Part shown: piece after piece, positions 21,190 to 26,501 of the stretch
How the letters are laid out: each line of letters begins with the position of its first letter
Position numbering within the stretch: position 1 is the first letter of the stretch
Assembly (NCBI GenBank): GCA_019056805.1
Contig: DXJG01000002.1
Location: 463,103-495,102, forward strand
DNA from: Candidatus Baldrarchaeota archaeon
GTDB lineage: Archaea > Asgardarchaeota > Baldrarchaeia > Baldrarchaeales > DXJG01
Direction: 5' to 3'
DNA: 32,000 nt
Program-made: the position numbers and the translations under genes
Notes under the pieces: generated by a model
What the model was told of the DNA's origin: nothing
Seen by the model: only the letters and a program-made list of their open reading frames with translations
Databases searched by the model: none

Positions 21190-21822
21190 TCAAAGTTTTT
21201 CCATAACCTTTTTTACAAGTTCTCTCACAGCTTTTCTCCCGCCTAAAAACAAAGCTAATTCTGCAAGTCTTTCTACATGTCTTTCTAAGACAGGCATTAT
21301 TATATCTTTTGATTGAGTATCTAAGCTTGTTACGAGGTCTATTAATTCGCTTAAGGTATCAAAAACGCTTCTAAACATGTCATAAACATACATAGGAGCG
21401 TCTGAAACTCTTCTCTTCGCAATTAGATTCCCAACATTATAGTAAACTTCTTTAACAACAATTTCAGGAGAAGCACCATTTCCAAGTTTGTTGAGACCGT
21501 TCTTTAGGATTTCCTCTACGGTATTTTGCATTTGCCAAATCTGTTCATTGCTTTTACTTTTGCTCTCAAAAAATACCGCTAACGCATAGTGTTCAACTTC
21601 TTTTGTTTTTCCAAAGAAAATACATGCTATCATACCTAAATCTGGAAAAAGAGTTTGTACACAACCTTCAGCTTCGCTCAAATCTTTTGCACCACTGCTT
21701 ACCCAAACATCCAAAGCCATATTCCAAAGTTTCTCTCGAGGGATAAATCCCTCGGGAAACATAGCCTCCGCTATAGGTCCCAGTTTATAATCAAACTTAA
21801 TAAGAAGTACACCTTTGAGCAT
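21190..21822 (-). CDS. Longin/uDENN-like domain protein, paralog 1, with C-terminal helical domain
   Basis: MLKGVLLIKFDYKLGPIAEAMFP has the hydrophobic strand plus FDxxxGP motif; the apparent order is beta-beta-alpha-beta-beta-beta-alpha-alpha. Clear homology to 23601-24251. The fold call is inference. Confidence 0.6.
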   Translation of the reverse strand: MLKGVLLIKFDYKLGPIAEAMFPEGFIPREKLWNMALDVWVSSGAKDLSEAEGCVQTLFPDLGMIACIFFGKTKEVEHYALAVFFESKSKSNEQIWQMQNTVEEILKNGLNKLGNGASPEIVVKEVYYNVGNLIAKRRVSDAPMYVYDMFRSVFDTLSELIDLVTSLDTQSKDIIMPVLERHVERLAELALFLGGRKAVRELVKKVMEKL

Positions 21823-21840
21823 TTATAAGCCACACACCAA

Positions 21841-23247
21841 TTATTCTATCGGAACGAGACGAGTTTCAATATAACCTTTCTCAGTGCTTACGGTCATAAC
21901 ATACATTTCGGTCCTAGGTATAAGTCCGTAAATTACAGTAGTTCCTTCAATATTTTCCAACTTAAAGTGGGTAGTAGCCATATGGCAAAGCGTTCTAATA
22001 AGTTTCTGACCATATTTTACTATAGCTAGAACCAAAAGATTTCTAGTCCTTGAAAGTATAGACAACTGACTCAGAAACTTGTAAACAGTTTGAGGATCAT
22101 ATATATGTTCCACCGTATCCACACCAATAATAAAAGCCAAGTCCCTGCTACCAACTTTTTCTCTTAATTCATTTACTGCTTTCGAAGCTATTTGATGTGC
22201 TTTAGCAACATCTCCTCTCGGTATTTTTAAAATATAGGGCTTTTCAGCTTCTGCTTCTTCAACCTCTAAAATCCTAACGCACGCATTAAATTTTTCTTCT
22301 CCAACAAAGGGAATAATCCACTTTTCTAACTCTTCGACAGGTTCTCCTTCACATGGAATAATCATCACTGGTATATTATGTTGGACAAGATTTGCCACAA
22401 GAGGGGCTACAAGCCAAAGATAGTATGGTCCTACTTCTTCTCCGATTTCTAAGAGGTTAAAGCTTCCTCTTCTATAACCTCCAGCCGTTAAATTGTTTAA
22501 ATCTTCCACTCCCGTTGAAATTCTCTCCTTACTCGTGATTAAAGGCGGACTGACAACTTTCTCAGGGAAGTAAATTGGTTCATCTCTGAAGTGCGTAAAT
22601 CTTCCATCTTTTAAAGTAAAAAGAAATGTAGGTTTCTTAATTTCTTCCCCCCTTATTTTCTCAAATATAATTTTTCTAATAAGTCTCCCTTGGATAATTT
22701 CACGAGTTAAAGTTACGATCCCATCGACTAGATAATCTATAGTTAACGCTTCATATCTTTCTACAACAAATATCACATTAGAATTGGTAGATTCTCCCAA
22801 TTCTAATAAAGCTCTTTCTATTCTTAAATTTTCTAATGGAATATCCAAATTAGTTTTTAATGCGTCTAAACTATCGATCACGATTGTAACTGGTCGCTTT
22901 TTTGAACTCTCAATTTTAGCATATAAAGCTCTTAAGAAATCAGGCTCGTCTGAATATTCAAAAAGTATATATTCTGGAGCTGACACAGGAATCTGGGGTT
23001 TTCTAGCATCTAAAATGTTTTCTTCGGGAATACTATCTTTAATCCAAGGAAACTGCCTTAAAAGTTTCTTGCTTGACACACGTGTAGAAACATAATAGCT
23101 TGTTCCATTTATTCCCATCTTCTTAATTAATTCCAAAGCTAAAGTTGTTTTTCCCGTACCAGCTAAGCCTTTTATTAATAGAGAAAAACCACCCTTGTTT
23201 AAAGCACTAATCAGTTCTTTTGGCACACCAAAAGAAACACTAACCAT
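21841..23247 (-). CDS. GvpD/KaiC-family tandem P-loop ATPase (active N-terminal domain, degenerate C-terminal domain)
   Basis: FSLLIKGLAGTGKTT, YVSTR, Walker B IVIDSLD and EKIRG. The second repeat starts STGVEDLNNLTAGGYRRGS but has no GKT. Confidence 0.85.
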   Translation of the reverse strand: MVSVSFGVPKELISALNKGGFSLLIKGLAGTGKTTLALELIKKMGINGTSYYVSTRVSSKKLLRQFPWIKDSIPEENILDARKPQIPVSAPEYILFEYSDEPDFLRALYAKIESSKKRPVTIVIDSLDALKTNLDIPLENLRIERALLELGESTNSNVIFVVERYEALTIDYLVDGIVTLTREIIQGRLIRKIIFEKIRGEEIKKPTFLFTLKDGRFTHFRDEPIYFPEKVVSPPLITSKERISTGVEDLNNLTAGGYRRGSFNLLEIGEEVGPYYLWLVAPLVANLVQHNIPVMIIPCEGEPVEELEKWIIPFVGEEKFNACVRILEVEEAEAEKPYILKIPRGDVAKAHQIASKAVNELREKVGSRDLAFIIGVDTVEHIYDPQTVYKFLSQLSILSRTRNLLVLAIVKYGQKLIRTLCHMATTHFKLENIEGTTVIYGLIPRTEMYVMTVSTEKGYIETRLVPIE

Positions 23248-23600
23248 AGATAGTCACCCTTATTCTTGGAAATAAACCGTTTAATTATTTTTTCTTTTAG
23301 TTTTATAAAGTCTTAAATATTTATTGTATTGATAGATTTTAAATTTTCGGTATTTACACCTAACTTCGTAATTTAGACCGTTTAAAGACGAATGACGACT
23401 TAAAAACCAGATAACCTTCAATGTTTACAAATAATATAATTTCACTTAGCTGGGATTTTAAAAAAGCTAATTCTTCCTTTACAAAGTGTTAGAGGCTTAT
23501 AGTAAAATTAATATTGGGTTGAAATTAAATGTAGTATCATGTATAATAACATTGTACTTAAAAATCGAGGGGGTTCAAAAGACGTCGTGAGGGAGCTTTC

Positions 23601-24893: not shown

Positions 24894-24987
24894 TCACCTT
24901 TAACCATATATTTAAATGCAAGCTTAAGATTTCTAATAACCCATACGTATGATAAGGATTTGGATCAGTATCTTGGGGTCGAATTAA

Positions 24988-25863
24988 ATGAGCTGGAACA
25001 TTCTTGTCACATGCTTGTTGGCTTTAGGCCTAGGAGTATTGCAGGGCTGCTTAGAATGGATTCCTGTAAGTAGTGAAGCTTTCTTAATGATTTATTTAAT
25101 AGTTATTTTAAAACTTGACCCCCTAACTGCCTTAGCTATCTCTATCTTCCTACACTTCTCTACAATGCTTACAGTTGTTATATATTTTAAAAAGGATTTT
25201 ATTGGAGCATTAAAAGTTTTAATCAATATTTTTAATATGGAAAAAAGAAGCAATACAAGGAATAATGCCGTTTTTAAACTTCTTGTAACATCATTTATAG
25301 GATCCATTATCTCTGGTGGCGCCACTTACATGTTTTACACGATTCTCCTTAAAACACTTGAAAAAAGTTTTTTGGAGACTGTTGGTTTATTCATCTTAAT
25401 TTTAATAGGCATTGCGATGGTTTTCACCGGATTTCTAATGAAAAAACAAGCTATAGGGCTTAGAACACTTGAAGAAGCAAATGAAGTCGACGGTTTATTG
25501 GGAGGTTTAGCTCAAGGGTTGGCGGTTATCCCTGGAATTAGTAGATCAGGTATTACACTAGCAACATTTCTTTATAGGAAATTTCAAAAAGAAGACGCCT
25601 TAACAATTTCTTTCCTAATATATGTCTCTGCGGTGATTCTATCCACTTTATACTACCTTTTAGTAAATAATATCATCATTATGATCCAAAGTGTGGGAAT
25701 TTTCTTCTTTACTATCGCATTTGTTTCTACATTTGTTTCTTCTTTAATAACTATGAAAAGTTTTCTCTATGTAGCTAAAAAACTGAGTTTTTCTAGGTTC
25801 TTGATTTCTATAGGTGTTTTAATTTTTGTATTAAATCTTTTTGTCCTTTTTTTGTCGAGATAA
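24988..25863 (+). CDS. uppP: UppP/BacA-family polyprenyl-diphosphate phosphatase
   Basis: GVLQGCLEWIPVSSEA and AQGLAVIPGISRSGITL signature motifs in a multi-TM protein. Confidence 0.88.
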   Translation: MSWNILVTCLLALGLGVLQGCLEWIPVSSEAFLMIYLIVILKLDPLTALAISIFLHFSTMLTVVIYFKKDFIGALKVLINIFNMEKRSNTRNNAVFKLLVTSFIGSIISGGATYMFYTILLKTLEKSFLETVGLFILILIGIAMVFTGFLMKKQAIGLRTLEEANEVDGLLGGLAQGLAVIPGISRSGITLATFLYRKFQKEDALTISFLIYVSAVILSTLYYLLVNNIIIMIQSVGIFFFTIAFVSTFVSSLITMKSFLYVAKKLSFSRFLISIGVLIFVLNLFVLFLSR

Positions 25864-26024
25864 TAGTAGTGAAAAATTATTTAGGTAACCTTTTCATATT
25901 TTTTTAATAGAGCGATTTAAATTAGCTACATAGTTAGTCTAAAAACACAAACTTTATAACTAATATTGTAGTAACAAATACTGCTACTAAAGAATACCTA
26001 AATCTAGAAGTAATATTTCTTGAC

Positions 26025-26501
26025 ATGATACCTGTTTCGTTTCATAATGATGTGAAGGGATATGTTATGAAAATCAAAGGAAATTATAACAGCAAACTAA
26101 AGGGCATTGTTTTAGGACGTTTATTACCAACCTTACCAAGTCCGCATTTCATATATCCTAACGATTTTTTAAATACTAAAGAGCTCAGGTACGTTATTAT
26201 GCAGGCATGGTTAAACTATGGTAGCACAACATGGACGGATAAACCTGAATTTGTATTTGTACACTATAACTGGCTTAAAATGATAGGATGCGCATACTTT
26301 GATAAATCAAATCATCTTGGAGAATATACACTTATTTGCATGTTTGATGAAAATGAAGGCGTAAAAGTTTGGAAGTATCTTCCGAAAATTAAAGAGTTCT
26401 TGGAAAAGGCTAGCCAAAAAATACGACACGAACAGAACATGGTCACAATAATAAAAAACTTATACAGGGAACTTTCAGAGAAAATATCACAATTAGAATA
26501 A
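26025..26501 (+). CDS. Stand-alone longin/uDENN-like protein, paralog 3 (no C-terminal helical domain)
   Basis: From LKGIVLGR onward it aligns by eye with paralogs 1 and 2 (YPNDFL, MQAW, MIGCAYFD, GEYTLICMFD, KVW, KNLY). Start could be ATG 26067. Confidence 0.5.
   Translation: MIPVSFHNDVKGYVMKIKGNYNSKLKGIVLGRLLPTLPSPHFIYPNDFLNTKELRYVIMQAWLNYGSTTWTDKPEFVFVHYNWLKMIGCAYFDKSNHLGEYTLICMFDENEGVKVWKYLPKIKEFLEKASQKIRHEQNMVTIIKNLYRELSEKISQLE

Follow-up and report, generated by a model that had tools for sequence, protein, structure and literature searches.

The window, a stretch of 32,000 nucleotides from a Candidatus Baldrarchaeota genome, contains three related open reading frames, here called LonA, LonB and LonC, together with genes for a KaiC-like ATPase, a TrmB-family regulator and a small GTPase (Table 1). 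The KaiC-like gene and LonA share a strand, with 18 nt between the end of the former and the start of the latter, LonB is divergent from the KaiC-like gene with a spacer of 353 nt, and the last 4 nt of the TrmB ORF, at its stop, also belong to the Ras171 ORF. Neither Rfam nor tRNA scans found anything in the window.

Table 1. Features of the locus, with their positions in the window.
Feature	Position	Strand	Description
LonA	21190..21822	minus	210 aa; residues 1-136 GP-motif longin domain; residues 138-210 predicted three-helix bundle, LGGRK motif
GvpD/KaiC-like P-loop ATPase (KaiC468)	21841..23247	minus	468 aa; Pfam GvpD_P-loop 4.2e-13, KaiC 1.4e-10, GvpD_bR2 2.5e-8; NCBIfam KaiC-type matches
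LonB	23601..24251	plus	216 aa; residues 1-131 (23601-23993) longin domain, GP motif at G15-P16
LonB tail	24009-24218	plus	residues 137-206, predicted three-helix bundle, WGGRE motif
LonC	26025..26501	plus	158 aa as longest ORF; longin domain only, without helical tail
TrmB-family HTH regulator	26543..27454	plus	downstream of LonC, same strand; Pfam TrmB 3e-22
Ras/Rab-like small GTPase (Ras171)	27451..27966	plus	171 aa; Pfam Ras 8.5e-60

All three ORFs are present where the first-pass annotation had placed them, and its view of them as paralogs was borne out by BLASTP. LonA and LonB align over their full length, including a C-terminal helical region with a GGR/GGK motif (E 2e-28, 29% identity), and LonC is significantly similar to both LonB (E 3e-17, 25% identity, LonB 2-131 with LonC 25-156) and LonA (E 2e-10, 22% identity). 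In the translations, LonA and LonB share 20 of their first 27 residues, as reported, and LonC ends, as had been described, at the alignment column where the helical region of the other two starts. A family profile matched LonA with an E value of 1.5e-67 and LonC with 2.8e-49. Because two further genomes from the genus have orthologs of all three (64-92% identity) with the gene order conserved, the three ORFs can be taken as real, conserved genes; NCBI records label these orthologs ‘hypothetical protein’. Since the LonC orthologs (P0010) have 144 aa and start at MKIK, LonC probably starts at the ATG at 26067 and not at 26025, giving a product of 144 aa.

The AlphaFold2 model of LonB (pLDDT 76) displayed a strand-strand-helix-strand-strand-strand-helix topology that lacks a helix ahead of strand 1, for which DSSP assigned E2-11, E15-22, H29-41, E51-56, E61-67, E76-83, H84-109 and H114-130. 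On this model, the N-terminal ~131 residues adopt a longin fold. The best structural match was the longin domain of a Lokiarchaeota Roadblock-Longin protein (PDB 8yqg; VIA Z 14.4, 129 aa, rmsd 2.7, only 15% identity), crystallised as a dimer according to its entry title; that protein is a roadblock-longin fusion, whereas LonA and LonB are stand-alone longins with a predicted helical tail. The longin of Lst4 (yeast FNIP, PDB 4zy8), the non-catalytic longin half of a heterodimeric Rag GAP, matched with a VIA Z of 12.7 over 121 residues; Lst4, however, runs on into a DENN domain and has no detectable sequence similarity to LonB. SMCR8, FNIP2, NPRL2, DENND1A and SEA/Npr2 gave VIA Z values of 10.3-10.7, and neighbours in AFDB and the Atlas were named Folliculin/SMCR8 longin, NPR2, C9orf72 and Avl9. 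Judged from the model, the nearest solved relatives after the Lokiarchaeota longin are therefore longins of the FLCN/SMCR8/NPRL2/Lst4/DENN type. The structure search proposed in the first-pass annotation thus favoured a longin fold over roadblock and GAF/PAS.

Roadblock, GAF and PAS folds were rejected on topology and Z scores. With regard to Roadblock/LC7, the model begins with strand 1 at residue 2, two helices close the domain, and roadblock matches are weaker (VIA Z 8-8.7). LOV and SdiA rows from Foldseek showed an rmsd of 18-19 at low probability, and generic helical matches of LonB (VIA Z about 8-9) fell short of the stated helical-bundle noise level. Longins of TRAPP, Sec22, VAMP7 and coatomer-zeta match too (VIA Z about 9), in line with generic longin scaffolds that act in membranes or trafficking (SNARE-, TRAPP-, SRX- or adaptor-sigma-like) and whose gene linkages are incidental. 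We regard this as very improbable, given that the FLCN/Lst4/NPRL2 class is matched clearly better, that TRAPP and adaptin longins have no GP motif (PMC12290439), and that the loci showed neither a SNARE motif nor a TM segment nor a TRAPPC3 partner.

This GP motif, FD-x-K-LGP, is found at residues 10-16 of LonA and LonB, where it opens strand 2, and nearly all family members carry the same. It is described as a mark of the GAP-type longins FLCN, NPRL2, SMCR8 and C9orf72 and also of one Asgard longin class (PMC12290439). The first-pass annotation had read the hairpin as a uDENN-type signature of a three-member family, which holds in part: the hairpin is the published GP motif, but ‘uDENN’ is justified only in its FLCN/SMCR8 meaning, with no cDENN or dDENN, because the GP hairpin is absent from DENND-family proteins (PMC12290439), and of the three paralogs only LonA and LonB carry it, LonC and its orthologs having L-PSP instead (G missing). 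No DENN Pfam domains were found, the proteins ending after the 75-residue helical bundle or right after the longin domain. For LonA, LonB, LonC and 23 relatives, no match in Pfam or NCBIfam exceeded the cut-off, the Pfam models NPR2 and Folliculin did not match the family at E <= 0.1, and PF06218 occurs in 19% of the members of one Atlas feature neighbour. In a PDB-wide search, the family profile matched human NPRL2 residues 8-75, including its FHPTLGP hairpin and with an alignable FP/YP-x-x-F segment (E 5e-4 for the full-length and 0.005 for the longin-only profile).

Unlike NPRL2, FLCN and SMCR8, the family has no arginine finger. No Arg is conserved at its position in the loop that precedes the last strand (NPRL2 R78, FLCN R164, SMCR8 R147), a position mapped by sequence extension and not by residue-level superposition, as the HMM alignment stops at NPRL2 residue 75 and R78 lies three beyond. 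The strand 4-strand 5 loop reads DEDGNLGP in LonB and LGxY in the family consensus, and the family alignment contains no invariant Arg anywhere in the domain. A distant longin of the same genome, encoded on another contig beside a Rag-like GTPase, has ARGG in this loop, so the arginine motif is detectable when present. With a GP motif but no Arg, the closest likeness is to C9orf72, the non-catalytic partner; the published Asgard GP-motif class, in comparison, retains the arginine finger (PMC12290439). These observations speak against true arginine-finger GAPs that would be functional equivalents of FLCN/NPRL2 and stimulate GTP hydrolysis on a Rag-, Arf- or Rab-like GTPase. Such a role would agree with the fold and GP motif shared with GAP longins (PMC12290439), with the Rag/Gtr1-like GTPases adjoining the longin pair in two relatives (G003 and G004), and with the switch II of Ras171 (WDIAGHE in translation), in which a His instead of the catalytic Gln might make hydrolysis partner-dependent; we nevertheless consider it decidedly unlikely.

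In LonA and LonB, a ~75-residue domain modelled as a three-helix bundle stands where NPRL2 and FLCN have a DENN or NPRL2 C-terminal domain, and LonC has nothing there. Folded alone, this domain reached a pLDDT of 78; its model found no fold match in the PDB and AFDB clusters (best E 0.66-1.2), for which reason we describe it as a generic three-helix bundle. Its earlier designation as unrecognised still applies, as no named family (Pfam/NCBIfam) and no fold (PDB/AFDB) matched. The tail would likely serve as a partner-binding or oligomerisation element.

An exhaustive profile search of 1.84 billion proteins uncovered 23 family clusters, and about 13 genomes, out of 400 from the phylum, had strong family matches; the family is a rare subfamily confined to few lineages. 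A word-indexed homolog search yielded nothing beyond close orthologs, and a scan of the genome contigs returned nothing with a single protein and three loci with an ortholog alignment. The family profile also weakly matched the N-termini of many Asgard proteins of 130, 350-370 and ~1130 aa of the ‘FLCN/SMCR8-type’ or ‘NPRL2-like’ kind. Asgard NPRL2-like and FLCN-like longins have already been published (bioRxiv 10.1101/2020.10.19.343400; PMC12290439), and the kind of protein is therefore known: phylum, fold class and GP motif are shared, and AFDB neighbours are annotated accordingly. In contrast to the published Asgard class, our family lacks the arginine finger, has its own helical tail and occurs in few lineages.

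Paralog pairs are the rule among the relatives, with tandem pairs in G002, G003, G004, G112-G114, L042, L045, L047 and L048. The first-pass annotation had assumed a locally expanded family, a view that has to be given up, since such pairs also occur in other Asgard families and are not confined to this genome. The pairing, reminiscent of NPRL2-NPRL3, FLCN-FNIP and C9orf72-SMCR8, fits putative heterodimers; homodimers are equally possible because a lone family copy is found in at least one genome (G001).

KaiC-type ATPases are the commonest neighbours of the family, the linkage extending over four lineages and three KaiC subtypes. According to its translation, the GvpD-like ATPase of the window has an intact Walker A motif in the N-terminal domain (GLAGTGKTT) and no P-loop in the second RecA-like half. 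In the Baldrarchaeia, KaiC468 is followed by LonA; in another lineage, a GvpD-like KaiC464 (28% identity and E 6e-54 to the window KaiC) adjoins the family member P0018. The order in family f13 is KaiC239, KaiC466, longin, GNAT, longin, and in family f4 and L047 it is longin, longin, KaiC261/271. The third conserved gene of f13 (201 aa) showed no similarity to the longin profile in hhalign; the Atlas hints at a Fuz/Mon1-type longin, which we note as a lead only. Archaea are abundant in KaiC-family genes, and Makarova and colleagues (mBio, 2017), treating KaiC proteins as signalling hubs, are said to have tied them to many partner domains. The genome of the window has only 17 KaiC-family matches in 1.9 Mb, and no member of the longin family adjoins any of the other 16. 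Some relatives (G005, G001 and L041) have neither a KaiC nor a GTPase neighbour. The linked KaiC genes come from different subfamilies, so any physical KaiC contact would need to be generic or to have arisen more than once. The accessible papers do not mention a KaiC linkage, and the word ‘KaiC’ appears nowhere in the preprint of Liu et al.

Small GTPase genes adjoin the family in three contexts. The order LonC-TrmB-GTPase is kept within the genus, Rag/Gtr1-like GTPases stand beside the pairs of G003 and G004, and a metagenome locus (L042) reveals a GTPase-longin-longin operon headed by a GTPase 40% identical to Ras171; LonA and LonB themselves have no adjoining GTPase gene. That relatives show linkage to Rag- or Arf-like GTPases recalls the longins of this type in eukaryotes, which serve in the control of Rag, Arf and Rab GTPases. 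A complex prediction for the G004 pair with its Rag-like GTPase, hence for relatives and not for the window proteins, scored 0.34 against 0.01 for the best of three controls, passing a mark that was attained in 58 of 80 solved complexes and in 2 of 110 mismatched pairs; among those reaching it at 0.60 or under were 7 of the 80 solved complexes and both passing mismatches. At least 4% of contacts agreed between runs and the partner pLDDT was at least 78, using author-made alignments. The prediction lends weak support to GTPase binding, and its pass may reflect mere likeness to known structures, because FLCN-FNIP2-Rag and GATOR1-Rag complexes have been solved.

Given the frequent KaiC adjacency and the GvpD-like nature of the window ATPase, the longins could also serve KaiC-type ATPase signalling as adaptor or output subunits and have no GTPase role; they might, for example, modulate KaiC oligomers or relay to TrmB in the manner of GvpD acting on GvpE. 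Fusions of NPRL2-like longins with prokaryotic signal-transduction domains have been described (Liu et al.; bioRxiv 10.1101/2020.10.19.343400). We hold this to be unlikely, as GTPase genes lie by family pairs in three separate contexts, most characterised longins of the class act on small GTPases (PMC10933270; PMC12290439), and no KaiC-longin complex is known. Our favoured reading, which we consider somewhat more probable than its negation, is that LonA, LonB and LonC are stand-alone longin proteins of the NPRL2/FLCN/SMCR8/C9orf72 (‘GP-motif’) class, LonA and LonB with a family-specific helical bundle, and that they form dimers which are not arginine-finger GAPs but docking partners of a small GTPase, connecting it to a KaiC-type ATPase, a function that we infer.

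Homo- or heterodimers would form via the longin domains, a mode of pairing seen in solved longin and roadblock proteins, and the dimer might form a docking platform for a Ras-superfamily GTPase, of the Ras171 type here and of the Rag/Arf type in relatives. Without an arginine finger, it could serve as a scaffold, regulate in a GEF-like or allosteric way, or supply a regulator with its non-catalytic half, and would not be an FLCN/NPRL2-style GAP. The adjoining KaiC/GvpD-like ATPase might provide input via its ATP or phosphorylation state; the module would in that case join archaeal-type ATPase signalling with a eukaryote-type GTPase switch. A further-reaching version, which we offer as speculative and rather doubtful, is that the KaiC-family ATPase, as an archaeal-type signalling hub, controls the GTPase through an arginine-less NPRL2/C9orf72-like longin dimer with the three-helix bundle as KaiC-docking element, a hybrid prokaryotic/eukaryotic switch and possible forerunner in evolution of the GATOR1/FLCN GTPase regulators that sense nutrients.

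The longin GAP complexes GATOR1, FLCN-FNIP and C9orf72-SMCR8 control eukaryotic lysosomal nutrient signalling, and work under way is tracing them back to Asgard archaea. Our proteins share the longin fold with their subunits and differ from the eukaryotic GAP longins in having only 144-216 aa and in being linked to KaiC-family ATPases. The rarity of the subfamily, the unmatched helical tail, the missing arginine and the paired genes beside KaiC or GTPase genes are unreported in the accessible literature. In one cultured genome, GTPase genes were not generally in operons with roadblock, longin and TRAPPC3 genes, which makes GTPase partners hard to assign (Tran et al., PMC10933270). The clusters of this subfamily, with a longin pair, a KaiC and sometimes a GTPase, are compact and conserved, encode small soluble proteins and name candidate partners, and a GP-motif longin without an arginine finger helps to separate the role of the GP motif from that of the arginine.

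The window, with a G+C content of 32-39%, encodes archaeal housekeeping functions as well as two GTPases of the Ras family. The three longin-domain proteins LonA, LonB and LonC are present as open reading frames where the first-pass annotation had placed them. Its view of them as paralogs is borne out, as LonA matches LonB from one terminus to the other with 29% identity (E 2e-28), and LonC, which it had called a divergent copy, can be aligned with the ~131 N-terminal residues of LonB (E 3e-17) and with the same part of LonA (E 2e-10), ending in the alignment where the helical tail of the other two sets in, as had also been proposed. 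Because LonC orthologs have 144 aa and begin 14 codons later than the longest reading frame, the true start is probably a downstream ATG. No further family member occurs in the genome, which is 91% complete at 1.92 Mb in 18 contigs. An Rfam scan of the whole window at the gathering threshold, including 24280-24332, matched no family.

Positions of the longin genes, their neighbours and further genes mentioned in the text
Feature	Location	Strand	Product
LonA	window, 21190-21822	-	210 aa
KaiC468	window, 21841-23247	-	468 aa, GvpD/KaiC-like P-loop ATPase
LonB	window, 23601-24251	+	216 aa
LonC, longest ORF	window, 26025-26501	+	158 aa
First 14 codons of that ORF	window, 26025-26066	+
Probable LonC start (ATG)	window, 26067	+
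Ras171	window, 27451-27966	+	171 aa, Ras/Rab-like GTPase
Second Ras-family GTPase	window, 4206-5045		279 aa
Longin protein and Rag/Gtr1-like GTPase	locus L040, 1093-3505 (same genome, contig C15, about 55.3-57.7 kb)		454 aa; 308 aa
KaiC-family gene and 113-aa protein gene	same genome, contig C13, 13345-14246		186 aa; 113 aa
GNAT and 201-aa protein genes of family f13	locus L028 (genome G114), 9691-10206 and 11086-11691
Gene next to the longin-longin-KaiC261 cluster	locus L047, 6757-7284		175 aa

The AlphaFold2 model of LonB (pLDDT 76) consists of two parts joined by a disordered linker, residues 1-131 being arranged as strand-strand-helix-strand-strand-strand-helix-helix and residues 137-206 as a three-helix bundle. 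In a Foldseek-independent search of 48,161 PDB representatives, the model matched best the longin domain of a Lokiarchaeota Roadblock-Longin protein (8yqg; Z 14.4, 129 aa, rmsd 2.7), followed by Lst4 (Z 12.7), by SMCR8, FNIP2, NPRL2, DENND1A and the SEA complex (Z 10.3-10.7), by TRAPP, Sec22 and VAMP7 (Z about 9), and by roadblock proteins (Z 8-8.7). Foldseek against PDB, AFDB clusters and the ESM Atlas agrees, with the Folliculin/SMCR8 longin, NPR2, C9orf72 and Avl9 among the match names. A longin-type fold had been proposed from the sequence, a different fold being set beforehand as the refuting outcome; the searches returned longins and not a different fold. The fold itself, as modelled, is almost certainly a longin of the NPRL2/FLCN class. 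A roadblock topology was excluded for LonB, in whose model no helix precedes strand 1.

In a sequence search across the PDB, a 26-member family profile matches human NPRL2 (E 5e-4; 0.005 with a longin-only profile), NPRL2 residues 8-75 aligning as FHPTLGP...VPEDFI with the family pattern FDxxLGP...(F/Y)PxxF. The GP motif, a FDxxLGP hairpin, has been described in FLCN, NPRL2, SMCR8, C9orf72 and one class of Asgard longins, and the longins of DENND, TRAPP and adaptin proteins are reported to lack it (PMC12290439). Read from the sequence, the hairpin of our family is this motif; Asgard NPRL2/FLCN-like longins carrying it are already published, and the family is not a new kind of protein. That it represents generic trafficking longins is very improbable, given that structural matches to those are weaker and that those classes lack the GP motif.

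The published GP-motif class retains an arginine finger beside the motif (PMC12290439), whereas the family described here has none. NPRL2 R78, the catalytic arginine, is placed in the loop just past the alignment, which stops at NPRL2 residue 75; the loop before the last strand reads DEDGNLGP in LonB, KTKEVEH in LonA and KSNHLGE in LonC (family consensus LGxY), and no conserved arginine occurs anywhere in the longin domain of the family alignment. An arginine finger would be visible if present, because a distant longin of the same genome has ARGG in the same loop. The missing arginine contradicts the reading of these proteins as true arginine-finger GAPs, which we regard as unlikely. Also in contrast to the published class, the LonC clade has lost the GP motif and carries L-PSP instead. 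The helical tail, noted at first reading as an unrecognised domain, folds alone into a plain three-helix bundle (pLDDT 78) with no significant structural match in PDB or AFDB clusters, and its GGR/GGK motif is confined to the closest relatives. In the literature covered, we found no description of the arginine-less subfamily, the helical tail or the clusters of KaiC with a longin pair, with or without a GTPase.

The closest public locus, on the Candidatus Baldrarchaeota MAG JAEOSG010000058.1, has the same gene order as the window (TopoI, LonA, KaiC-like, LonB, HIT, BacA, LonC, TrmB, GTPase), with protein identities of 62-92%; orthologs from Baldrarchaeia, 'Asgardarchaeia' and one Odinarchaeota-labelled MAG are named 'hypothetical protein' at NCBI. 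The family is rare: when 1.84 billion representative proteins were searched exhaustively with an HMM, 23 clusters reached E <= 1e-3. Of 400 genomes of the phylum, ~13, from five families, have strong matches (E < 1e-20); the many weak ones reach only the longin domain at the N-terminus of other Asgard proteins. Outside the Baldrarchaeia genus, tandem pairs are the usual state (genomes G002, G003, G004 and G112-G114; loci L042, L045, L047 and L048). In the maximum-likelihood tree, the pair of Asgard family f13 groups with LonA, that of family f4 forms its own clade nearer LonC, and LonB is a separate branch; with midpoint rooting only and several weak deep forks, we infer no order of duplications.

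KaiC-family ATPases, named here by length, are the commonest linkage. In Baldrarchaeia, the GvpD-like KaiC468 is followed after an 18-nt gap by LonA, LonB being divergent; in the lineage of the family member P0018, a GvpD-like KaiC464 (28% identity to KaiC468 over 476 aa, E 6e-54) lies divergent from P0018 with a peptidase gene between. Family f13 has the order KaiC239, KaiC466, longin, GNAT, longin and 201-aa protein, and f4 and L047 have longin, longin and KaiC261/271, the KaiCs being mutually 75% identical; in G004, a second KaiC lies two genes beyond the first. There are 17 KaiC-family hits in the window genome, and by a rough estimate from about 2,000 genes, about 2% of random genes would have one as immediate neighbour; none of the other 16 adjoins a family member. 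According to its translation, with Pfam support, KaiC468 has an intact N-terminal P-loop and a second half without one.

Several further genes were noted. The gene for the GNAT acetyltransferase between the two f13 longin genes and that for the conserved 201-aa protein after them recur in L033 and L037. The 201-aa protein has no Pfam hit; an Atlas feature search, a lead only, gave a Fuz/Mon1/HPS1-type longin (0.91), and hhalign found no similarity to the longin family profile. The 175-aa protein of L047 (a JGI metagenome contig), likewise without Pfam hit, looks roadblock/longin-like by eye. On contig C13, the stop of the KaiC-family gene overlaps the start of the gene for the 113-aa protein, by eye roadblock/LC7-like; this may be a further case of a KaiC paired with a member of the roadblock/longin superfamily.

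The frequency of the KaiC linkage would fit a role as KaiC adaptor without GTPase function; we hold this to be a lesser possibility, however, since GTPase genes also recur beside the family. Gtr1/RagA-like GTPases adjoin the longin pair in G004 and G003 (Pfam E 4e-22 and 2e-18), L042 has a GTPase-longin-longin operon whose first gene is 40% identical to Ras171, and LonC-TrmB-Ras171 is conserved within the genus, TrmB and GTPase overlapping by 4 nt. At the loci of G005, G001 and L041, neither KaiC nor GTPase linkage was found. About 11 Ras-family hits occur in the 1.9 Mb of the window genome, whose small GTPases, with Ras171 and the Rag-like protein of contig C15 among them, number ~12. Switch II of Ras171 reads WDIAGHE, with His at the catalytic Gln position of Ras-superfamily proteins; related GTPases retain Gln (WDISGQ in L042, FDCGGQ in G004). 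The second Ras-family GTPase of the window (Pfam Ras 2.4e-46) has a ~95-residue C-terminal extension. Elsewhere in the genome, a Rag/Gtr1-like GTPase 45% identical to the one adjoining the G004 pair is encoded immediately downstream of a 454-aa protein, on the same strand. The 454-aa protein combines a longin domain at its N-terminus with a multi-TM C-terminal half; the longin domain matches the family profile (hhalign E 3.4e-5) and shows ARGG in the NPRL2/FLCN arginine-finger loop, and the two genes may encode a longin GAP anchored in the membrane and its GTPase.

From the cleanest of the clusters, the two G004 longins were modelled with the neighbouring Rag-like GTPase as scored partner, using shallow custom alignments. 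The trio scored 0.34 (runs 0.34, 0.10, 0.36) and the best control 0.01, with at least 4% of contacts agreeing between runs and a partner pLDDT of at least 78. In calibration, 58 of 80 solved complexes passed the mark, as did 2 of 110 mismatched pairs; those passing it with scores <= 0.60 were only seven of the solved complexes plus both passing mismatches. The prediction lends weak support to GTPase docking by the G004 pair, although, with FLCN-FNIP2-Rag and GATOR1-Rag already solved, its pass may mirror likeness only, and it carries no direct information on LonA, LonB or LonC.

The explanation that we favour, by a modest degree and with less confidence in each functional step, is that these proteins would dimerise through their longin domains, as suggested by the dimeric crystal structure of the best structural match and the obligate heterodimers of eukaryotic relatives. 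Such a dimer would dock a small GTPase and, lacking an arginine finger, would probably not be a GAP; it may instead provide a scaffold, regulate the GTPase allosterically or through exchange, or be the non-catalytic member of a pair, like C9orf72 beside SMCR8. The co-transcribed KaiC/GvpD-like ATPase would provide nucleotide- or phosphorylation-dependent input.
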